This document shows, in pieces, positions 20,458 to 46,948 of a DNA stretch of 64,000 nt (position 1 is the stretch's first letter; every line of letters starts with the position of its first letter). The DNA lies in assembly GCA_005222965.1 (NCBI GenBank), contig NJBG01000001.1, positions 896,167-960,166 of the forward strand. Direction: 5' to 3'. Both the position numbers and the translations under genes were made by a program. The notes under the pieces were generated by a model. That model was not told the DNA's origin. It worked only from the letters and a program-made list of their open reading frames with translations, and did no database searches. The DNA comes from Candidatus Woesearchaeota archaeon B3_Woes. GTDB lineage: Archaea > Nanobdellota > Nanobdellia > Woesearchaeales > B3-WOES.

Positions 20458-21018
20458 TTATTCTAAACTTAAGAAATCCATTGTTGGTTTATATCCTTCT
20501 TGCAACCAATATCTTGATCTATCTAACATTATATCTGATTCATCTTTATACTGTTGTTTAACACCATCAACCAACAGACGTAGAAACTGATTAAAATTAT
20601 TAGCTACAACCATAGTCTCTCTTGAATCATGAGCTGTATTTAAAACACGTCCTTGCATAATTAGATATTCTGAATTAACATCAATCGTAATTGGATCACC
20701 ATTATCAGATGCTATCTCAACAACATCATCACAACCCTCAATCTCTTTTCCACTTTCTGGATTTGTATCATATAATAAGAGATGTTCTTCCAGTTCACTT
20801 ATACTATGAAAATATATATCTGAAATCTCAGCTCCATTTGAAAATCTTAAAAAAGCTAGATAATCATCTGATATTTCACTCCCTTTTACGGCATATTCCC
20901 TCTTAAGAGATTCTATTTCTTCTTCGCTTGCACCAGTATTAAATTTAATATCTTCTCTTTCTGTTTCAAGTTTTCGAAGCTCTGAAAAAATATCATCAAT
21001 TGAACTATTTTTTACCAT
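20458..21018 (-). CDS. hypothetical acidic protein
   Basis: 186-aa acidic ORF with no recognised motif. Confidence 0.35.
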   Translation of the reverse strand: MVKNSSIDDIFSELRKLETEREDIKFNTGASEEEIESLKREYAVKGSEISDDYLAFLRFSNGAEISDIYFHSISELEEHLLLYDTNPESGKEIEGCDDVVEIASDNGDPITIDVNSEYLIMQGRVLNTAHDSRETMVVANNFNQFLRLLVDGVKQQYKDESDIMLDRSRYWLQEGYKPTMDFLSLE

Positions 21019-21142
21019 GTTATTAAGTATAAAAAGACTAATATATAAATCTTTCGTTTTGTTATTACTTATTAGTAGATATTAAATTTATAAAAACGAA
21101 AAAACAATAAATTTAAATATCCAATAATTAATAAAGAACTAT

Positions 21143-21569: not shown

Positions 21570-23489
21570 ATGGAAACAAAAGTACCTGCACTAAAAAAAT
21601 TCCTAGAGGAAGTTAAAAGTTATAATCCAAAAGCAGACTTTAAAATAATTGAAAAAGCATTCAATCTATCAAAAAAAGCCCACAAAGGCCAAAAAAGAGC
21701 ATCAGGCAAACCCTACTTCTCTCATCCAATTGCAGTTGGAAGAACACTAATGGATCTTAATGTAGATTCTGCCACAATATGCGCATCTCTTTTACATGAT
21801 GTTATAGAAGATACAAAAATAACATATGAACAACTATCAAAAGAATTCAATAAAGAAATAGCAAATATTGTTGATGGCTTAACTCATATAGAAAAGATAA
21901 AATTTCAAAGCAGGGAAGAATATACTAATAAAAATATAAGAAAAGTTTTGCTAGCATCATCTAAAGATATTAGAATAATCTTAATCAAGTTAGCAGACAG
22001 GCTCCACAACATGCAAACCCTAAAATACATAAATCAAGGGAATCAAAAAAGGATAGCTAGAATAACTTTAGATATATTTGCACCGATTGCTGAAAAATTA
22101 GGATTATGGACTATTAAAGGAGAATTAGAAGACCTTTCATTAAAATTCCTAGAACCAAAAACATACGAATCTCTTAAAAAGAAGATTGGTGAAAAAAGAA
22201 CAAAAAGAGAACAACAAACAATAGAGATTGTTAACCTAATCCAAAAAGAACTTGAACACAACCATATAAAAGCAAAAACATTTGGAAGAGCAAAATATTT
22301 CTACAGCATCTACAAAAAGATGACGAAAAAGGATAAGAGATTTGATGAAATATTCGATTTAATTGGTATCAGAATAATTACTTCTAATGAAAGAGAGTGT
22401 TACGCAGCATTAAATTTAGTGCATAATCTATGGCCTCACAAAAAAACACAACTCAAAGATTATATAAAATACCCAAAAGACAACGGCTATCAATCAATGC
22501 ACACAACCGTCTATGGTCCTTATAATAAAGTACTGGAAATCCAGATAAGAGATCTTAAAATGCATTATGAAGCAGAAGGAGGTATTGCTGCTCATTGGAG
22601 ATATGCTGGAACAGAAAGAGACAAAGAATTTGACAGGCGTATCCAATGGTTTAAACAAGCAATAGAATGGAGAAGGTTTTCAAAAAACGCAAAAGAGTTT
22701 ATAGAAAACCTTAAAATGGATTTTTATGAAAACGAAATAATAATATTAACACCAAAAGGAGATCCTATTCCATTAAAAGAAGGCTCAACACCTTTGGATT
22801 TTGCTTACGAACTTCACACTTCAATCGGAAATCATTGTTCTGCAGCTATTGTAAATGGAAAAGCAGTTCCATTAGACTATAAATTAAAGAGCGGCCAAGT
22901 AGTTAACATAATAACCAAAGAAAAAGCCCACCCCTCTAGCTCATGGCTTAATATTGTCCAGACAAATCGTGCAAAATCCAAAATAAGAAGTTCTCTTGGA
23001 CTTACAATGAAGAGAAGCAAAATCACAATACCCTCTTTTGAAGAATCAAGCATAGCTCATAAATTACAGCTTAAAGATCCAACAATAAAAGCCAAAATAA
23101 AAATTGCAAGGTGCTGTAATCCTAGACTAAACGACCCTGTGATGGGTTACAAATACAACCACAACATAATAATTGTACACAATATAGAATGTCCTCAGAT
23201 GTCTGTTTTTGATAAAACAAAAAGAGTAAATGTTTTTTGGAAAATTAAGGAAACAGAAATAGATTCTAACACATTTAGAATAAAAGTTACTGACAGGGTT
23301 GGATTATTATCAGAAATACTTAATCTTTTCTCACAATATGGTCTTAAATTAGAATCTGTAACAACAAAAATATCCAAGAAAAGAGTTTTTTTTATAATTA
23401 AGATAAAGAAAATAAATCCAAAAACTTCAAAAGAAATCTTCACAAGACTTAAAACAATACCAAATGTCTTAGATATCTTCTTTGTCTAG
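21570..23489 (+). CDS. long RelA/SpoT homolog (HD hydrolase + (p)ppGpp synthetase + TGS + ACT)
   Basis: HD motif (SHPIAVG...LLHDVIEDT). Synthetase motifs (FGRAKYFYSIYKKM, DLIGIRIITS, YQSMHTTV). TGS region (IILTPKGDPIPLKEGSTPLDFAYELHT). C-terminal ACT-like segment. 639 aa. The last 73 bp of the gene are duplicated at 27301..27376. Confidence 0.85.
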   Translation: METKVPALKKFLEEVKSYNPKADFKIIEKAFNLSKKAHKGQKRASGKPYFSHPIAVGRTLMDLNVDSATICASLLHDVIEDTKITYEQLSKEFNKEIANIVDGLTHIEKIKFQSREEYTNKNIRKVLLASSKDIRIILIKLADRLHNMQTLKYINQGNQKRIARITLDIFAPIAEKLGLWTIKGELEDLSLKFLEPKTYESLKKKIGEKRTKREQQTIEIVNLIQKELEHNHIKAKTFGRAKYFYSIYKKMTKKDKRFDEIFDLIGIRIITSNERECYAALNLVHNLWPHKKTQLKDYIKYPKDNGYQSMHTTVYGPYNKVLEIQIRDLKMHYEAEGGIAAHWRYAGTERDKEFDRRIQWFKQAIEWRRFSKNAKEFIENLKMDFYENEIIILTPKGDPIPLKEGSTPLDFAYELHTSIGNHCSAAIVNGKAVPLDYKLKSGQVVNIITKEKAHPSSSWLNIVQTNRAKSKIRSSLGLTMKRSKITIPSFEESSIAHKLQLKDPTIKAKIKIARCCNPRLNDPVMGYKYNHNIIIVHNIECPQMSVFDKTKRVNVFWKIKETEIDSNTFRIKVTDRVGLLSEILNLFSQYGLKLESVTTKISKKRVFFIIKIKKINPKTSKEIFTRLKTIPNVLDIFFV

Positions 23490-23492
23490 TTT
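23417..23492. repeat. 76-bp direct repeat, left copy (covers the 3' end and stop codon of the RSH gene)
   Basis: tccaaaaacttcaaaagaaatcttcacaagacttaaaacaataccaaatgtcttagatatcttctttgtctagttt. Identical to 27301..27376 apart from one A/G mismatch. Confidence 0.85.
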
Positions 23493-23618
23493 TATCATTA
23501 TATTCAATAATATAACCTTTAACACATTCTTTCCCGAATAATTCTATGTAGAGATGTTGTGTTGATTTAATTTTTCATCAACTTCTTCATATTTATTCAC
23601 AACTCAGTTTTTTGCCTT

Positions 23619-24953
23619 TTAAATACTAAAGTACAAACTTGTTTTCGCTATTCCTGTTTTGATTAATGCATCGTATAGTTTCTGATGTTCTATGTCTCCT
23701 ATCTGTGTTGCTATCTCTAATGCTTTTTCGTATTTCATTTCTTCCTGAAATGCAGTCATTGCTTGTGGTAAGTATTTGTCTTCTCCGGTTATTTCTAGTG
23801 CTTGAAGAAGAAATTCACCCTTATTTCTGTCAGGTTTCGTTTGCCTTTTTTCTTTAGATACGACTACATCAACCGCTTCGATAACTTTACTTTTGTACCC
23901 ATTGCTAATTAACTTTTCAGCATCTGTTAAGAAACGCTCAGCAAGTGAGTCAGTATACTTCATAAAAATACGTTCTGACAAATGTGTTGCAGAAATTATA
24001 AGTTCATACAAGCTATTTTGTACATCATCTTTTTTCCTTTCCTCTACTGTCTGCACATCTATTTCTAACTCTAAATGCTTAAGACAGTGTATCTTATCAT
24101 AACTGCTTACATCATTGTTTACATTGTCTATTCCTTCTTGTGCTATTTTATTAGCATATTCTGGATGAATATTTTTAGCAAAGAAAATTGCCTTGGTATA
24201 AGGGTTAGTATATTGGCCGTCGTTGATTATTTCTTGTGTGTGTTTAATAACTTTTTTTTCAACCCATTTTCTGTTTGTTGGATTTGTTTTGATTCCTATT
24301 AGAGCCTCTCTCAAGTGTGCTAAATAAGACTGCCTTTTTGTTGGTTCTGCTATGAGAGATTCGTAAATTTCTTTGAATAAAGTTACTGCTTTTTTATCTG
24401 CATTTATTCTTTTGTATCCTTGTGCAACTGTGCTGAGAGAAGCTCTAAAAATTTGTCTTTCATCTTGTGCATCGATTTCGTTTGATAAAGATAAAGTGTT
24501 TGCTTTTTCTTTGATGTTTTTAACAACCTTATCAATTGTGTCTTCAGAAGTTGTCCCTCGAAGAACTTTTTCAAAATCATGATCAAACCCATTGATGACT
24601 GTGTTGGAAATGTATGTGTACATTTCTTCAGCACGTTTAGGGTCAATGTTCATTATCCGATCCGCTTCTATTTCCGCAAATGTTAAATATTCTCTTTTTG
24701 GATTCTCATCTTCAATCATAAGATCAATTATTTCTGAGAACTCAGAGTCTTGCTGGAAGCCTTGTACGTCCATAGATACAGAACTTGTTGTGTGCTTCGT
24801 TATTATTTCTCCTGCAAATGCTATCAGAAATCTTTCTCTTTCAGACATATAACCCCACCCTCCACAATCTAGGTTGTGTTGTGTGTTGTCTAATTGTGCT
24901 GTTATTTCTGCTAATGTTAATGTTTGTTCTTCTTGTGTTTGATTTGTTTCCAT
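23619..24953 (-). CDS. alpha-helical repeat protein of unknown function (island paralog A)
   Basis: 444 aa. Its N-terminal 23 aa (METNQTQEEQTLTLAEITAQLDN) and 5' leader are near-identical at the DNA level to those of 24977..26209. Confidence 0.5.
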   Translation of the reverse strand: METNQTQEEQTLTLAEITAQLDNTQHNLDCGGWGYMSERERFLIAFAGEIITKHTTSSVSMDVQGFQQDSEFSEIIDLMIEDENPKREYLTFAEIEADRIMNIDPKRAEEMYTYISNTVINGFDHDFEKVLRGTTSEDTIDKVVKNIKEKANTLSLSNEIDAQDERQIFRASLSTVAQGYKRINADKKAVTLFKEIYESLIAEPTKRQSYLAHLREALIGIKTNPTNRKWVEKKVIKHTQEIINDGQYTNPYTKAIFFAKNIHPEYANKIAQEGIDNVNNDVSSYDKIHCLKHLELEIDVQTVEERKKDDVQNSLYELIISATHLSERIFMKYTDSLAERFLTDAEKLISNGYKSKVIEAVDVVVSKEKRQTKPDRNKGEFLLQALEITGEDKYLPQAMTAFQEEMKYEKALEIATQIGDIEHQKLYDALIKTGIAKTSLYFSI

Positions 24954-24976
24954 TTTTTATTCACTTTCCATGTTTA

Positions 24977-26209
24977 TTACTCTAGCTTCAAGTACGCATC
25001 TATTGACCTGAATATCTGTTTTTGTTTTTTATTTCCAGCTTCTGTTGCAAGTATTGTTAATTCGTCATATTGACCATGTCTTTTGAAAGCGGATATTGCT
25101 TTGTCAAGGTAGTTCTCTCCTCCTAGCAATCTATGTACTTGAAGAAAACGTTCTCCTTCTTGTTCGCTAATCTCTGATTGTTTCATTTCTTCTTTATAGG
25201 TAATCGCTTCAGTGATAGCGTTTTCTGCTTCTTCAGCAAATCCTTTTTCTACTAGTTTTTCAATTGCATACCAGAAAGATAACTCTTTCGATGCATCTCC
25301 TCCCGCAGCGTATTCTTCATCTAAAAACGCGAAAGAGACATCTTCTTTAACTGTTGTCCGGTAATCATCAAGTCTTTGTTTTTCAACATGATTTTTTGTT
25401 TGCTCATCAGGTTCCATGTCAAGTATTTTGTATAGAGTGTGTTTTTCAGAATAGTTATTAGAATTTCTTATTCCTTCTTTGGCCATAGTTCTGGCAAGTT
25501 GTTGATCATATCCTTTAGCAGCATTAAACGCTTGTAAATATTCTTTATTCTCAAAATGTTCATTAGCTTTTGCTATTGCTAATATTTTCAATTTTTCGTT
25601 TGCTTTTTTCGTGCTTGTTCCATTAGCATTTAACTTTACTATTCTTAATAGATCGTCTGTTTCTTCATATAATTCGACTGCTTTTCTTGGATTGCCTAGT
25701 TTGTTATATTTGCTGGCTGCAGAACGAAGTATTTTAGTAAATTGTTCTTCCCCTAGCATTTGTTCTTTATCTCTTGCAATGCTAAGCGCTTGTTCGAGTA
25801 TTCTTTCAGATTTAGTGGACAAAATTACATTGTCTAGATAATTCAATTCTTCGCCTGTGCTTTCTGAGATTTTATCAAGCATAAACTTATACATCTCGCT
25901 TACTCGTTCAGGATTGTGTTTCTCTGACTCATATGCTTCAACGTGTGCAACTTCTAGATGGTGCCTGCTTATTCCTTTTTCATGTAGGATAAAATTTATA
26001 AGTGAACTTTTCTCATCTTCAGATAATCTTCCTCTTTTATCATGAAGATTAATTAAGAAACTTTCCTTTTCAGTTAAGTCTTCAACAGTCTGATAATGTG
26101 ACCTAAGAGTTTTTAGAGGTGCTTGAAAACCTCTTGTTTCATTATCTAGTTGTGCTACTATTTCTTTTAGTGTTAATGTTTGTTCTTCTTGTGTTTGATT
26201 TGTTTTCAT
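24977..26209 (-). CDS. alpha-helical repeat protein of unknown function (island paralog B)
   Basis: 410 aa. Shares the N-terminus MKTNQTQEEQTLTLKEIVAQLDN and the upstream ttttttattcac leader with paralog A. The C-terminal regions are only distantly similar. Confidence 0.5.
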   Translation of the reverse strand: MKTNQTQEEQTLTLKEIVAQLDNETRGFQAPLKTLRSHYQTVEDLTEKESFLINLHDKRGRLSEDEKSSLINFILHEKGISRHHLEVAHVEAYESEKHNPERVSEMYKFMLDKISESTGEELNYLDNVILSTKSERILEQALSIARDKEQMLGEEQFTKILRSAASKYNKLGNPRKAVELYEETDDLLRIVKLNANGTSTKKANEKLKILAIAKANEHFENKEYLQAFNAAKGYDQQLARTMAKEGIRNSNNYSEKHTLYKILDMEPDEQTKNHVEKQRLDDYRTTVKEDVSFAFLDEEYAAGGDASKELSFWYAIEKLVEKGFAEEAENAITEAITYKEEMKQSEISEQEGERFLQVHRLLGGENYLDKAISAFKRHGQYDELTILATEAGNKKQKQIFRSIDAYLKLE

Positions 26210-26340
26210 TTTTTATTCACCTTTTAATTTTTATTTACTTATTAGTAGTTAAAGTATTTCAACAATTATATAAAACTTTTCATTGATTTTTTTACTATTT
26301 AACCACAAAGTATATAAATACAACCAGATTAGTAGATATT

Positions 26341-27300
26341 ATGCTTATAAAACTAGATAAGAAAGATCGAAGAATACTCTACCATCTAGATTTAAACAGC
26401 AGGCAGACCTACAACCAGATAGCAAAGAAAGTAGGACTCAGTAGAGAAGTCATACAATATAGGATAAAGCAACTAGAAAAAAGAGGCGTAATCAGAGGCT
26501 ACCAGACACTAATTGATGTCACTAAGCTTGGCTATCTTAATTGCAGATTCTTCATAAAGTTCCAGAGAGATTCTCCTGAGCAGGAAAAAGAAATAATAGA
26601 GTACTACAAGCAACATCCAAATTTCTGGTGGGTTGACAGCATCGATGGATTCAGGGATCTAGGAATTGCCTGCTGGGTAAAAAACATCTACGAGTTCCAT
26701 GATATAAAAGAAGATTTAGTCAAAAGATTTGGAAACTTCATTCATGATTTTAACATGGCAATCTACTCGAAGTTTTATATCTACAAAAGAACTTATTTGC
26801 TGGATGATAAAATAGAACTTCCTCCTGTAAAAACAATGTTCTCGCAGGAAAAGGCAAAGTTTGACGATAAGGATATCGAACTCTTAAGATTAATAGCTCC
26901 AAATGCAAGAATGAGTTCAGTAGATCTTTCACAACAAACAGGAATAAGTGTTACAAACATCAACTACAGAATAAAGAAGTTGATTGAAAGGAAAATAATA
27001 GTTGAGTTCAGAGTGATAATTGATCTAAAGAAAATAGGTTATTACTGGTATAAGATAGAGTTCCAACTGGAAGACTTAAACATAAAAAAAGGATTGTTAG
27101 AATACTCTCACAAACACAAAAACATTATCTACGCGTATGAAACAATAAGCGAAAACGACATAGAAATAGAGCTTGAAGTGCAGAGTTATGAAGAGTTCAG
27201 AGAGATACTTGATGATATCAGAAAAACATTCGGCAAAGACATAAAGAAATATCATCACTTATTATGGTATAAGGAGCACAAGTTCCTGTTTATGCCATAA
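26341..27300 (+). CDS. tandem (duplicated) Lrp/AsnC-family transcriptional regulator
   Basis: Two successive HTH_AsnC-like segments (DRRILYHLDLNSRQTYNQIAKKVGLSREVIQYRIKQLEKRGVI and DIELLRLIAPNARMSSVDLSQQTGISVTNINYRIKKLIERKII). Each is followed by a RAM-like beta-alpha-beta domain. Confidence 0.7.
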   Translation: MLIKLDKKDRRILYHLDLNSRQTYNQIAKKVGLSREVIQYRIKQLEKRGVIRGYQTLIDVTKLGYLNCRFFIKFQRDSPEQEKEIIEYYKQHPNFWWVDSIDGFRDLGIACWVKNIYEFHDIKEDLVKRFGNFIHDFNMAIYSKFYIYKRTYLLDDKIELPPVKTMFSQEKAKFDDKDIELLRLIAPNARMSSVDLSQQTGISVTNINYRIKKLIERKIIVEFRVIIDLKKIGYYWYKIEFQLEDLNIKKGLLEYSHKHKNIIYAYETISENDIEIELEVQSYEEFREILDDIRKTFGKDIKKYHHLLWYKEHKFLFMP

Positions 27301-27376
27301 TCCAAAAACTTCAAAAGAAATCTTCACAAGACTTAAAGCAATACCAAATGTCTTAGATATCTTCTTTGTCTAGTTT
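27301..27376. repeat. 76-bp direct repeat, right copy (duplicated RSH 3' end)
   Basis: Single mismatch to 23417..23492. Contains an in-frame copy of the RSH C-terminal codons and stop, with no upstream gene body. Confidence 0.85.
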
Positions 27377-30074: not shown

Positions 30075-31229
30075 CTACTGCTTTAGGACATCAACCTTAT
30101 CTGTTTTTTCCCATGTAAAGTCAGGATCTTCTCTTCCAAAATGACCATATGAAGCTGTTTTTCTGTATATTGGTCTTCTTAAGTCAAGCTGTTCTATTAT
30201 ATCCTTTGGTTTTAATGGAAAATGTTTTTTTATTAATTCAACTATTTTTTCTTCTGGTATCTTGTTTGTTCCAAAAGTATCCACAAAAACACCAGTAGGT
30301 TCTGCCACTCCAATTGCATATGCCAGCTCAACTTCACATCTGTCAGCTAATCCTGCAGCAACAAGATTCTTAGCAATATATCTTGCAGCATAAGTAGCAG
30401 ATCTATCTACTTTTGAAGGATCTTTTCCAGAAAAACACCCACCACCATGTCTTCCCATACCACCATAAGTATCTACAATTATCTTTCTCCCTGTAACTCC
30501 TGTATCTCCTTCTGGTCCGCCTACAACAAACTTTCCTGTTGCATTTATATGGACTTTTGTATTTTCATCAAAATAATCCCCGCAAACAGGTTTAATTACT
30601 TTCTCAAGAATTTCCTTTTTTAATTCATCTTCTGAAATAATCTCTAAATGTTGTTGAGCAATAACAACTGCTTCAACTCTTTTTGGCTTTCCATCTTCAT
30701 ATTCAACAGTAACCTGAGATTTGCCATCAGGTCCTAGATCTTTTATTTCGCCATTTTTTCTTACGTCTGCTAGTTTTCTTGTTAATTTATGAGCCAAACT
30801 TATTGGCAATGGCATTAATTCCTCTGTTTCATTACACGCATAACCAAACATCATTCCCTGGTCTCCTGCGCCTTGTTCTCCAGATGCTCCCTGACCTTCT
30901 GTAACTCCTATAGATATATCAGGTGATTGCTCATGAATAGCAACCCAAACACCAGCATCCTCATAATCAATTCCAAAATCTGGATTAGTATAACCTATAT
31001 CTTTTAACACCTCTCTGACAACCTTTTGAACATCTGCAAAACCTTTTGTTGTTACTTCACCTGCAACATGCACAGATCCAGTTGTTGTTAAACACTCAAT
31101 AGCAACTCTTGATTGAGGGTCTTGTTTATACAATTCATCTAAAATCCCATCAGAAATTTGATCACATACTTTATCTGGATGACCTTCTGTTACTGATTCA
31201 GATGTAAATAAAAAATTTTTTTGTTCCAT
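30075..31229 (-). CDS. metK: S-adenosylmethionine synthetase, bacterial/eukaryotic type
   Basis: [21 protein letters not shown]-terminus, the [12 protein letters not shown] motif, and [17 protein letters not shown]. This is not the archaeal-type MAT family. Confidence 0.9.
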
Positions 31230-33791: not shown

Positions 33792-33912
33792 GCTCCTATA
33801 GTGTAGCCCGGTCAATCACTCTGCCTTTTCGTGTTGGCAATCAAAGATTCCCAAAATTTTTTGATTCCACCAAAAAAAGGCAGGAACAGGGGTTCGAATC
33901 CCCTTAGGAGCA
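33792..33912 (+). tRNA. tRNA-Glu (anticodon TTC) with 46-nt intron at 37/38
   Basis: Exons give acceptor GCTCCTA/TAGGAGC, anticodon arm CTGCC-TTTTCGA-GGCAG and T-arm AGGGG-TTCGAAT-CCCCT. The intron is tgttggcaat...ccaccaaaaaa, located between loop positions 37 and 38. Confidence 0.75.
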
Positions 33913-42529: not shown

Positions 42530-44425
42530 ATGAAAACAGAAAATCAAATCAAAATAATAGCATATGTTGCTTTAATAGGAGTTATAACTATTTGGACAGT
42601 CATACTTGGCTCTTTGTTTGGATATATAGACAATAGAATTACAGGATTTGCTGTAGGAGATGGTAATGAAAGCAATGAAACAATAGATTGTAACAACAAC
42701 AGCATATGCGACGGAAATGAAACAATATTAACATGCCCATCTGATTGTAATACCACTAACGAAACTACCTGTAACAATAATAGCATATGTGATGGCAATG
42801 AAACAATATTAACATGTCCATCAGATTGTAATACAACCAACACAACAACATGTAATAATAACGGCACATGCGATACCAATGAAACATTTGAAACATGCCC
42901 ATCAGATTGTGTAGAGACCTGTACACCAGAAGAACAAAGAGATTGTGGAATAGAAGAAGGAATATGTATTACAGGTATTCAAACGTGTTATGAGAATGGA
43001 ACATGGGGAAGTTGCAATGGTTCAATCGAGCCCATGAATGAAACATGCAATGAATTAGATGATGATTGCGATGGAAAAGTAGATGAAGGATATGACTGGA
43101 ATAACAATAGCATAATTGATGATAATGAAACATTCGATTATGATGATGACGGATACTTCCCAAGAACAACCATCTATTTTAATCTATCATGCAGTAGTTA
43201 TTCTGAATATGATTGTAATGATACCAATTCAAGTATACATCCTAATGCACCTGAAATAGAAAATAATGTAGATGATGATTGTGATAGAGAGATAGATGAA
43301 ATAATATGGAATATAACCACAACCCATAAAATTAATCTAGGATATATAAAAAGAAACGGAACAAAAGCCTATCTGCGTGTAGGAGATTGGGCTGTCTTTA
43401 GCTACAAAAAACTTTATGGTACTCTTCTTTATGGAAAAATAGAACTAACAACACTTTCCTCAGCAGGAATTGGAATGACCTTCTCTGTTATCAAAGGAAT
43501 AAATATTAATGTTCTACCAGAAACAAATATGATAATTGGAGAATCAAAACAATATGATATGGATAACGATGGTAAAAATGATATTTCTATTAAATTAGAA
43601 GAAATACAATCTGATTTTAAAGCATACTTGATGATAAAAGATGTTTCAGAATACATCATGCCAACTTGCAATGATAATGGTGTTTGTGATGAAGGAGAAA
43701 CAGCAGCAAACTGCCCAGTAGATTGTTTAGTAATAAATTACTGCAATGAAAATGGAACTTGTGATGCAAACGAAACAATTGAAAACTGTCCAGAAGATTG
43801 CAAAGTAATTGAAGAGAAAAAAGCACCACCACCAGAACCAGTAGAAGAAGAACCTACTCAAGATTGGACATGTAATGATAATAATGTTTGTGAAGCATGG
43901 GAAACAAAACAGGACTGTCCATCTGATTGTAAAAAAGGTCCTATGCAATATATCCTTCTTGGTTTAATAACAACAAGTTTAATGCTATTAGTATTAGGAG
44001 GAATATTAATTAAAACCAAAAACCCCTATGGAATTAACAAAAAACTACAAAAAAACCTTGTTCAATCTATTAATAAAGGGTATGACTTAAACAATATCAA
44101 TTACTATCTAACTACCAAAAAACTTAAACAACCAAAGATAAAAAAAGCACTCAAATACGCATCTGATTTCATGGCTCTCAAAAGAGCAGTTATATTCTAC
44201 CTAAAACAAACTCATGATGAAAAGAAAGTAAAAAAGATGTGTATCAAAAATAAATGGTCTAAAAAACTAACAAATGATGTTTTTGACACTATTAAAATTC
44301 AACCAAAACCAGTTGTTCCTCAAAAAAAGATTGTTCCTTTTCAGCAAAAAAAGTTTATCAATCCCCCAAAAGGAAAAACAGCTCCTAAAACTGAAATTCA
44401 AAAAACCAAACTAAAAAAACTATAA
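42530..44425 (+). CDS. secreted Cys-rich glycoprotein-like protein with six 4-Cys 20-aa modules plus PF11617-like metal-binding motifs and a C-terminal TM anchor
   Basis: Signal/TM helix at the N-terminus. Six copies of C-N-[ND]-N-x-x-C-[DE]-x-x-E-T-x-x-x-C-P-x-D-C, two of them protein-identical but synonymously diverged. DCNDTNSSIHPNAPEIENNVDDDCD matches the putative metal-binding motif family. Many N-x-T sequons. TM helix near residue 480 and a basic cytoplasmic tail. Confidence 0.5.
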   Translation: MKTENQIKIIAYVALIGVITIWTVILGSLFGYIDNRITGFAVGDGNESNETIDCNNNSICDGNETILTCPSDCNTTNETTCNNNSICDGNETILTCPSDCNTTNTTTCNNNGTCDTNETFETCPSDCVETCTPEEQRDCGIEEGICITGIQTCYENGTWGSCNGSIEPMNETCNELDDDCDGKVDEGYDWNNNSIIDDNETFDYDDDGYFPRTTIYFNLSCSSYSEYDCNDTNSSIHPNAPEIENNVDDDCDREIDEIIWNITTTHKINLGYIKRNGTKAYLRVGDWAVFSYKKLYGTLLYGKIELTTLSSAGIGMTFSVIKGININVLPETNMIIGESKQYDMDNDGKNDISIKLEEIQSDFKAYLMIKDVSEYIMPTCNDNGVCDEGETAANCPVDCLVINYCNENGTCDANETIENCPEDCKVIEEKKAPPPEPVEEEPTQDWTCNDNNVCEAWETKQDCPSDCKKGPMQYILLGLITTSLMLLVLGGILIKTKNPYGINKKLQKNLVQSINKGYDLNNINYYLTTKKLKQPKIKKALKYASDFMALKRAVIFYLKQTHDEKKVKKMCIKNKWSKKLTNDVFDTIKIQPKPVVPQKKIVPFQQKKFINPPKGKTAPKTEIQKTKLKKL

Positions 44426-45391: not shown

Positions 45392-46948
45392 ATGAAGTAT
45401 AGTCCTTTAGAGAAAAAAGTAGAGAGAATTACTAAAAAGAATAAAATTCCTATAACTATAGTTACTTTTATCCTTCTTGTTGGACTGTTTATTGTTTATA
45501 ATTACAAACCCTCTGAAGAAAGTATAGAAAGGGAGTTTCTTGCACCACCAATAACTAATAAAACTTTTATGTTTAAAGAAGGGATCATATCAAATAATCT
45601 TTTTATTGAATTTAATATAACTCTTGAAGAAACAGGGATATATAGAATTAATGCAGAATTAAAAGATAATGAAGATAACATATTTTATCCTACTGGATCT
45701 AATAAATTTAATCTTAGCTCCGGCGAAAATACAGTCTTTCTTAATTTTAATGCAACTCAACTATACCTAAATAAAATAAATGGGTCTTATGAATTAACAA
45801 GATTAGATATTCAAAGAAAAGACTTTAAAATAAAGCTTAAGAATGTTTATAACACATCTGTTTACAATTATACTGATTTTGAATATATAAAAATATCAAT
45901 TAATCAAACACCAGAAGAATTAATTAACCAAACTCCAGAAGAAACAATCAACCAAACCCCTGAAGAAACCATTAATCAAACACCAGAAGAATTAATTAAC
46001 CAAACTCCAGAAGAAACAATCAACCAAACCCCTGAAGAAACCATTAATCAAACTCCAGAAGAGGTAATAAATAAAACACCTGAAGAAACCATAAACCAAA
46101 CTCCAGAAGAAACAATCAATCAAACACAAGATATCATTAACCAAACAAAAGAAATAATCAACCAAACCATAGAAGAAACAATAAATCAGACAGACAATCA
46201 AACAATAAACCAAACCCCTGAAGAAACCATTAATCAAACACCAGAAGAAACAATAAACAAAACAATCAATGACACAAACAATGAAATAATTGAAGAAATA
46301 AACACTAGAACCATCACCAGCGGTGGAGGAGGAGGGGGAGGTGGAGGAAGCTCTAACACAAAAACATACGCTTTTGGGGAATTAACTTCTCCTATCCAAC
46401 TAAGCTTAATTAGAAACAATATAGTTACATTTTATTTAAAAGAAGAATATCATAAAATTAACGTTATTAAAATAGGAAAAGATTATGTAGAACTAACAAT
46501 AAAATCAGATCCTATAACTGTTTTAGTTTATATAGGCCTAACAAAAAGGTTAGACATTAATAATGACAGGGTAGATGATATATATATAAAATTAAATGAT
46601 ATCAAATCAAGAAAAGCTGAAATTACTATAGGCAGAATTAAGCCAAAAATAAAATTAATATTCTGTAATAATAATGGGGTTTGTGATAAAGGAGAGAACT
46701 CAGCAAACTGCCCTAAAGATTGTCCTAAAGAAAAAGTTATCTCAGAACCAGTAAAAAAAGCACCAAAATATATTGAAAAGATAATATGCGATTATAATGA
46801 AATATGCGATAATGATGAAACCACTATGACATGCCCAACTGATTGTAAAAGAAACTATAAAGACAAGATTATTGTTAGTTTAATAACACTACTTGCAATA
46901 ATTATGATTTGTTTTATTGTTTTTGAGTATAAACATCATCAGGAATAA
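45392..46948 (+). CDS. membrane-anchored repeat protein: NQT octapeptide tandem repeats, poly-Gly, two C-terminal 4-Cys modules
   Basis: N-terminal TM helix. About 25 copies of INQTPEET-like units, each carrying an N-glycosylation sequon. A G9 tract. CNNNGVCDKGENSANCPKDC and CDYNEICDNDETTMTCPTDC modules. C-terminal TM helix. Confidence 0.5.
   Translation: MKYSPLEKKVERITKKNKIPITIVTFILLVGLFIVYNYKPSEESIEREFLAPPITNKTFMFKEGIISNNLFIEFNITLEETGIYRINAELKDNEDNIFYPTGSNKFNLSSGENTVFLNFNATQLYLNKINGSYELTRLDIQRKDFKIKLKNVYNTSVYNYTDFEYIKISINQTPEELINQTPEETINQTPEETINQTPEELINQTPEETINQTPEETINQTPEEVINKTPEETINQTPEETINQTQDIINQTKEIINQTIEETINQTDNQTINQTPEETINQTPEETINKTINDTNNEIIEEINTRTITSGGGGGGGGGSSNTKTYAFGELTSPIQLSLIRNNIVTFYLKEEYHKINVIKIGKDYVELTIKSDPITVLVYIGLTKRLDINNDRVDDIYIKLNDIKSRKAEITIGRIKPKIKLIFCNNNGVCDKGENSANCPKDCPKEKVISEPVKKAPKYIEKIICDYNEICDNDETTMTCPTDCKRNYKDKIIVSLITLLAIIMICFIVFEYKHHQE
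45895..46270 (+). repeat. 24-nt-period tandem repeat array (encodes the INQTPEET units), including an exact 72-nt higher-order duplication
   Basis: aaccaaactccagaagaaacaatcaaccaaacccctgaagaaaccattaatcaaacaccagaagaattaatt occurs twice, at about 45927 and about 45999. Confidence 0.8.

Follow-up and report, generated by a model that had tools for sequence, protein, structure and literature searches.

Introduction

In the vsp, vlp and vsa gene families of Mycoplasma, a conserved 5′ leader and lipoprotein signal peptide precede divergent bodies in many gene copies, which are switched by recombinases or promoter slippage. Segmental conversion, or concerted evolution, has a further example in the bacterial tufA/tufB genes. 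Interlocus gene conversion has been described between paralogues of Caenorhabditis (PMC3966223), and conserved termini of another kind, the encapsulation peptides of bacterial microcompartment (BMC) cargo, are short helical domains fused via a disordered linker (PMC12339742, PMC4594438). Here we describe two tandem genes, called A and B, in a stretch of 64,000 nucleotides (the window) from Candidatus Woesearchaeota archaeon B3_Woes (contig NJBG01000001.1, positions 896,167 to 960,166), which share an almost identical leader and first 23 codons and have strongly diverged bodies.

We think that there is about an even chance that the pair arose by an old tandem duplication and that its 5′ end has been kept alike by constraint on a shared N-terminal tail together with short-tract gene conversion. 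Other explanations are weighed below alongside the evidence that bears on them.

Results

The gene pair and its shared 5′ block

The relevant features are as follows, with positions counted in the window.

26209..24977, minus strand: gene A (CEE44_04975), first of the pair, encoding an acidic, soluble, all-alpha TPR-like protein of 410 amino acids
24953..23619, minus strand: gene B (CEE44_04970), a diverged paralogue of A encoding 444 amino acids
26141..26220, minus strand: shared 5′ module, A copy; leader GTGAATAAAAA plus codons 1-23, with the near-identical core at 26171-26220
24885..24964, minus strand: shared 5′ module, B copy; 11-nt leader plus codons 1-23, with the near-identical core at 24915-24964

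Both open reading frames (ORFs) lie on the minus strand where an earlier note on this DNA, made from the sequence alone, had placed them, as confirmed by the ORF listing and by matches at 100% identity to the NCBI proteins CEE44_04975 (A) and CEE44_04970 (B) of B3_Woes, a genome name for which no literature match was found. They sit inside a contig of 1,000,545 bp, are co-oriented, and are separated by 23 nt from the stop codon of A to the start of B. No TATA-like box is visible, by reading of the sequence, in this spacer or in the 3′ end of A; because B thus lacks an evident promoter of its own, the two genes probably form one co-transcribed operon. Their G+C contents at third codon positions (GC3; 0.21 and 0.25) are typical of the genome.

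Across their full length the proteins are 26% identical by BLASTP (E = 5e-30). Beyond the first 23 codons, 99 of 366 aligned columns are identical (27%) and nucleotide identity is 47.5%, so the bodies are indeed only remotely similar, as the note had said. The shared block at the 5′ end comprises 80 nt with nine differences, made up of the 11-nt leader GTGAATAAAAA, the ATG and codons 2-23; a repeat finder run on the pair returned 82 nt at 89% identity. The differences are unevenly placed. The first 50 nt (26171-26220 in A, 24915-24964 in B) contain a single mismatch, in codon 2 (AAA in A, GAA in B), and the last 30 nt contain the other eight. The pairwise DNA alignment thus bears out, at 49 of 50 nt, the claim of about 50 nt of almost identical DNA spanning leader and N-terminus. 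An exact core of 35 nt is common to both copies, and none of 100 dinucleotide shuffles matched it even with up to three mismatches permitted; the shared feature is real and well beyond chance. At the protein level the block reads M(K/E)TNQTQEEQTLTL(K/A)EI(V/T)AQLDN in both genes, the 23-mer that had been written down earlier, with 20 of 23 residues identical. The leader quoted in the note as ttttttattcac is the plus-strand view of GTGAATAAAAAA.

The 5′ edge of the identity is sharp. Upstream of GTGA the sequences of A and B are unrelated, and the DNA alignment shows that what precedes B is the 3′ end of A. The sharp edge would be explained if the duplicated unit began just upstream of the ribosome-binding site (RBS), and the lack of relationship upstream of position −11 in B fits such a duplication junction.

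Two layers of divergence

Proportions of synonymous (pS) and non-synonymous (pN) differences were obtained by the Nei-Gojobori method from two sequences only, and the expected level of codon sharing was derived from the genes' own codon usage. In the bodies, pS is 0.70 and pN is 0.48, and codon agreement among identical residues (51 of 98) is no higher than codon usage predicts; synonymous sites in the bodies are therefore saturated. In codons 2-13, the same codon is used at all 11 informative identical residues, against about 50% expected (P = 6e-4), with pS of 0 (0 of 7 sites) and pN of 0.03. Codons 14-23 behave differently again, with a body-like pS of 0.60, a pN of 0.17 that is a third of the body value, and synonymous differences at four of eight identical residues.

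The absence of synonymous change at the 5′ end, set against a saturated body, means either that the 5′ identity arose long after the duplication or that nucleotide-level constraint preserves it. Judged by this pattern, the segment from the leader to codon 13 is recently homogenised or constrained as nucleic acid, and codons 14-23 look old yet conserved as protein, although, with counts this small, an older conversion with ordinary purifying selection afterwards would leave the same signature in codons 14-23. The earlier note had proposed gene conversion or selection. This was the right pair of options, and the synonymous sites bear signs of both; conversion itself we infer from them.

The N-terminal tail

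Residues 2-14 (TNQTQEEQTLTL) are polar. On the question whether the N-terminus is ordinary low-complexity sequence, the entropy of these residues (2.13-2.19 bits) is borderline, a value as low being found in only 2% of 12-residue windows among the window's proteins; composition cannot, however, explain the exact nucleotide identity. In the AlphaFold models of both proteins, residues 1-13 are coil, a helix runs from residue 14 to 22-25, and the predicted local distance difference test score (pLDDT) stays below 50 up to residue 60-73. The helix is moderately amphipathic, with a hydrophobic moment of 0.35-0.49.

Such a tail could be a docking or targeting peptide of 23 residues that directs both proteins to one partner or compartment, by the logic of encapsulation peptides. 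In that case selection would have acted on the protein alone and the nucleotide identity would be incidental. The identity of 20 of 23 residues, compared with 27% in the body, speaks for this explanation, as do the modelled helix followed by a low-confidence linker in both proteins and the low non-synonymous but body-like synonymous divergence of codons 14-23. It leaves unexplained, however, the complete lack of synonymous change in codons 2-13 (P = 6e-4) and the 11 identical positions of the leader, and the best-conserved part of the peptide is a low-complexity coil. A Pfam scan of 29 nearby proteins revealed no shell, cage or partner genes, and the peptide is absent from other proteins of the window and from three public DNA collections. 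We consider protein-level selection alone unlikely, although it is the most credible of the alternatives to duplication with tail constraint and conversion.

Searches with the tail returned little beyond the pair itself. Within the window the N-terminal peptide occurs only in its two copies and in no other gene. The back-translated pattern, looked for in metagenomes as had earlier been suggested, gave 0 matches in GTDB representatives, JGI metagenomes and IMG/VR, sets that do not include the source genome. A profile search with the N-terminal 55 residues recovered neither A nor B and is hence uninformative. A candidate for a third, decayed copy, GTGAATAAATATG (23588-23600, minus strand, 18 nt past the stop codon of B), resembles the shared leader and ATG but opens an ORF of only seven codons; it was rejected because 197 and 262 of 1000 shuffles reached the score of its local alignment to the 5′ modules.

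The tail does not resemble an export signal. The first 25 residues have a mean Kyte-Doolittle hydropathy of −1.0, the best 19-residue window anywhere in the protein reaches 0.38 in A and 0.80 in B, and neither protein has the hydrophobic h-region of about 10-20 residues that a Sec or class III (pilin-type) signal carries near the N-terminus, the RR motif of a Tat signal, or a transmembrane segment. The statement that the N-terminus is not a Sec signal is thus upheld. A more speculative proposal, which we regard as very improbable, is that the shared module of RBS, polar 13-mer and short helix is a portable 5′ cassette, serving either as a non-canonical N-terminal export or translocation signal for TPR-like effectors of a DPANN episymbiont or as a site for recombination that swaps alternative bodies behind one promoter and N-terminus. 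If true, either version would amount to a new kind of signal or switch in archaea for which no effector-delivery system is known.

The block as RNA

It is also conceivable that positions −11 to +39 form an initiation or regulatory module, consisting of a Shine-Dalgarno (SD) sequence, an A-rich start and possibly a repressor or small-RNA site, that has been kept the same for joint translation or regulation of the two genes. Identity does set in at the SD-like GTGA and peaks between −11 and +39, which is roughly the region that governs initiation. In A, an AG before GTGAATAAAAA creates the SD-like AGGTGA, and B has the weaker SD-like AGTGA; since such motifs are found for only 12 of the window's 55 ORFs, A and B stand out as SD-led. 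The RNA of the block is A-rich and unstructured, with no stable fold detected (z-scores of −0.3 and +1.2). However, neither weak structure nor an SD motif demands sequence identity in a genome with 30% G+C. The block has no Rfam match, no conserved fold and no complementary sequence nearby, and four of its nine differences are synonymous with the reading frame kept, so that it evolves as coding sequence. We rate this explanation as somewhat less likely again than a docking peptide alone. The suggestion in the note of a shared regulatory or targeting element finds no backing in RNA structure, in other genes of the window carrying the segment, or in database matches.

An orphan family of helical-repeat proteins

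AlphaFold models of A and B contain 23 and 21 helices, with mean pLDDT of 68 and 56, and the proteins have net charges of −16 and −20, respectively. Foldseek matched the models only to generic folds of the TPR, Sel1 and SNAP types and to designed repeat proteins (the best being LGN, OGT-TPR, gamma-SNAP and designed repeat proteins), with template modelling scores (TM-scores) of at most 0.28 and E-values no better than 7e-4. The description of the bodies as helical-repeat sequences therefore agrees with the models, as does the remark that neither protein was recognised by motif with the family searches: no Pfam, NCBIfam, PHROGs or PADLOC family was significant for either protein. Pfam gave only sub-threshold hits to TPR_7 (12.5 bits against a cutoff of 27.9) and PPR (12.3 against 25) at residues 168-183 of A, and a sequence-profile search of the PDB returned no match.

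An exhaustive profile search of 1.84 billion representatives found A, B and one further protein of 253 amino acids (P0003; E = 1e-12), with no additional paralogue in the B3_Woes genome. These three proteins form three singleton clusters among about 15 billion proteins, and word-indexed protein searches matched only A and B themselves. No further relatives were found in metagenome, genome or viral contigs, nor by tblastn against plasmids and phages. The third protein comes from a 3.3-kb JGI contig (L001; Ga0247389_10076340, sample 3300022707), on which its frame continues upstream to contig position 137. Positions 1-136 of that contig repeat positions 364-499 exactly but in inverted orientation, which marks a chimeric fold-back end that truncates the gene call, and the N-terminus of the protein was lost because the contig end is chimeric.

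Chimeric contig ends of this kind raise the question of whether a false join could have created the tandem arrangement or the shared 5′ end of A and B, whose source is likewise a metagenome-assembled genome. Against this, the block has only 50-80 nt and carries nine differences, which rules out a collapsed repeat, true homology of the bodies extends from end to end, and both genes lie deep inside a contig of about 1 Mb. An assembly artefact is the least probable of the explanations considered.

A repeat-bounded cassette with a divergent regulator

The pair belongs to a larger arrangement, which has the following parts.

23415..23492, plus strand: 78-nt direct repeat, left copy; made up of the final 75 nt of the RelA/SpoT gene (21570..23489) and 3 nt more
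27299..27376, plus strand: 78-nt direct repeat, right copy; non-coding, starting inside the regulator stop codon and ending 45 nt before a P-type ATPase gene
26341..27300, plus strand: fused double Lrp/AsnC-type regulator of 319 amino acids, with two complete units of helix-turn-helix (HTH) plus effector domain, divergent from A-B
26210..26340: divergent intergenic region between A and the regulator, 131 nt, with A/T-rich TATA-like boxes and two ATTAGTAG motifs

The two copies of the direct repeat are identical at 77 of 78 positions, have a period of 3,884 nt, and enclose precisely three genes, namely B, A and the double Lrp/AsnC gene. With the tail that the left repeat encodes, the RelA/SpoT protein has a complete ACT domain. 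Because the repeat duplicates the 3′ end of relA/spoT and brackets B, A and the regulator, the three genes appear to be an insertion that left relA/spoT intact. Att-type integration with a recombinase acting in trans would give this structure, as would a single crossover that inserted a circular fragment with the relA tail on it. No integrase or recombinase is present in the cassette, which holds only A, B and the Lrp/AsnC-like gene, or among the neighbouring genes scanned. The cassette would be a concrete example of genes being inserted into a reduced archaeal genome without an integrase.

A further possibility for the 5′ blocks themselves is that they are substrates for deletion or cassette exchange, with excision of 1,256 bp fusing the promoter and N-terminus of A to the body of B; this would be an expression switch comparable to the conserved 5′ ends in families of variable-protein genes. 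The copies are direct repeats that keep register and reading frame at a spacing of 1,256 nt, and the repeat that bounds the whole cassette, at 78 nt, is of similar length. However, no recombinase was found among the genes scanned in the cassette and its surroundings, the block exists in just two copies, variants are without evidence, and a deletion would be irreversible. This is a very unlikely explanation.

The regulator gave Pfam matches to HTH_24 and HTH_AsnC in two stretches and PDB matches to Lrp/FFRP proteins over residues 3-127 and 171-314, and NCBIfam also contributes evidence. Its GC3 of 0.40 stands about 5 standard deviations from the mean of the 55 ORFs (0.194 +/- 0.042), and its codon-usage distance is the second largest among them. 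Since A and B show no such deviation, foreign and native genes may be combined in the cassette as a mosaic. In the intergenic region, a TATA-like box TTTTATATAA lies about 60 nt upstream of the ATG of A and another, GTATATAAATA, about 20-30 nt upstream of the regulator ATG; both are putative promoters.

A 17-nt motif, TTACTTATTAGTAG(A/T)TA, occurs at 21065-21081 and 26235-26251, in the SUKH/small-gene and the A/regulator intergenic regions, with 16 of 17 positions alike. A third occurrence, ATTAGTAGATAT, is found at 26328-26339, directly before the regulator ATG, and all three copies of ATTAGTAG in the window are at these sites. The ATTAGTAG-type motif could be a candidate operator, although the statistics are marginal. 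TAGTAG was rejected as a general promoter motif, being present 8 times in intergenic sequence against 5.3 expected, which is not an enrichment.

Other features of the window

Certain genes of the window are unexpected in a DPANN archaeon and more typical of bacteria: a full-length long RelA/SpoT homologue with HD, synthetase, TGS and ACT domains (21570-23489), a bacterial/eukaryotic-type S-adenosylmethionine synthetase (30075-31229), and an immunity-type protein of the SUKH-1 (SMI1/KNR4) family (20458-21018). Rfam identifies a tRNA over 121 nt at 33792-33912 that was not called by ARAGORN and is probably an intron-containing archaeal tRNA. There are also coding tandem repeats. The ORF at 42530..44425, whose product has a MopE-type metal-binding Pfam match, contains three 81-nt units (42689-42931) that specify Cys-rich CNNN..C..C..C modules, and the ORF at 45392..46948 contains at least 12 copies of a 24-nt unit (45843-46311) encoding NQT-x-E-E-x-I-like octapeptides with N-x-T sequons.

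Discussion

A plausible course of events can be proposed for the pair. A and B would derive from an old tandem duplication of a unit that started shortly before the RBS and ended shortly after the stop codon. The two would form a single operon that uses the promoter upstream of A, and the divergent double Lrp/AsnC regulator would probably control it. Divergence of the bodies would have gone on until their synonymous sites were saturated. Throughout, both proteins would have needed the same N-terminal tail, composed of a probably disordered polar 13-mer, a short helix and a flexible linker before the TPR-like solenoid; most plausibly, the tail would act as a tethered peptide, bound either by a partner common to both proteins or in a TPR groove. 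Constraint on the tail may have kept the DNA similar enough for recombination, and short-tract gene conversion between the copies could have re-homogenised the block repeatedly, with the latest tract reaching from the RBS to the end of codon 13. A side effect would be that the two cistrons carry the same unstructured, A-rich translation-initiation region.

Several points weigh against this scenario. The synonymous contrast comes from two sequences with about 7 synonymous sites per sub-segment, so that conversion is not separable from nucleotide-level selection, nor is protein constraint on codons 14-23 separable from an older conversion with ordinary purifying selection. The searches found no orthologues of A and B that could reveal concerted evolution, and no partner protein. 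Furthermore, a perfectly conserved low-complexity coil (residues 2-14) is an unusual outcome of protein-level selection alone, the N-terminal models are of low confidence, and the helix is only moderately amphipathic.

If duplication with tail constraint and conversion is correct, the pair is a clean, small example of how a constrained tail keeps recombination-competent identity between otherwise saturated paralogues. The first 23 residues would then be the part of this orphan DPANN family most worth testing, and the findings overturn no current understanding.

Comparison with known systems

The pair resembles in its architecture the Mycoplasma vsp, vlp and vsa families, in which tandem paralogues also have a near-identical untranslated leader and about 25 N-terminal codons before divergent bodies. 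A and B differ from these in having no signal peptide or nearby recombinase, in being only two copies, and in encoding cytoplasmic proteins.

The encapsulation peptides of BMC cargo (PMC12339742, PMC4594438) offer a parallel at the protein level, since a short terminal helix, amphipathic and about 15-20 residues long, and a poorly ordered linker are conserved there although the bodies differ. In A and B the corresponding parts would be the helix from residue 14 to 22-25 (moment 0.35-0.49) and the linker predicted at pLDDT below 50. Unlike the BMC cases, however, A and B are archaeal, they are paralogues rather than unrelated enzymes, and 13 polar residues precede the helix; moreover, there is no Pfam match to BMC-H or BMC-P shell genes among the 29 nearby proteins scanned.

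As for the bodies, the all-helical models may share hairpin repeats with the alpha-solenoids of the TPR, Sel1 and SNAP type, and TPR-like local motifs are present, with G-x4-A-V-x-L-Y at about residues 168-183 of A and Y-L-x2-A-x2-A-F near the C-terminus. A and B are set apart from these families by the failure of any Pfam repeat model to reach threshold (12.5 against 27.9 bits), by TM-scores of at most 0.28, and by their orphan status, with three known sequences.

The cassette, in turn, is comparable to att-bounded elements. A near-perfect direct repeat of 78 nt duplicates the relA/spoT 3′ end and leaves the gene intact, and it brackets a three-gene cassette of 3.9 kb in which one cargo gene has foreign-looking codon usage. 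The cassette differs from such elements in having no integrase, replication gene or tRNA target, and in the native-like codon usage of A and B.

A comparable process is interlocus gene conversion (PMC3966223). As in that case, synonymous divergence in a short block is far below that of the remaining alignment (0 of 7 sites against 0.70), the copies are adjacent and co-oriented, and identity decays towards one edge. The tract in A and B is unlike the known examples in being very short (50-80 nt), and the remainder is too diverged to recombine (47.5% nucleotide identity), which implies that the block must have been kept similar continuously. The observation is real and not extraordinary: tandem paralogues in which a 5′ segment is homogenised or held by constraint represent a known kind of phenomenon, found here in an orphan TPR-like family.

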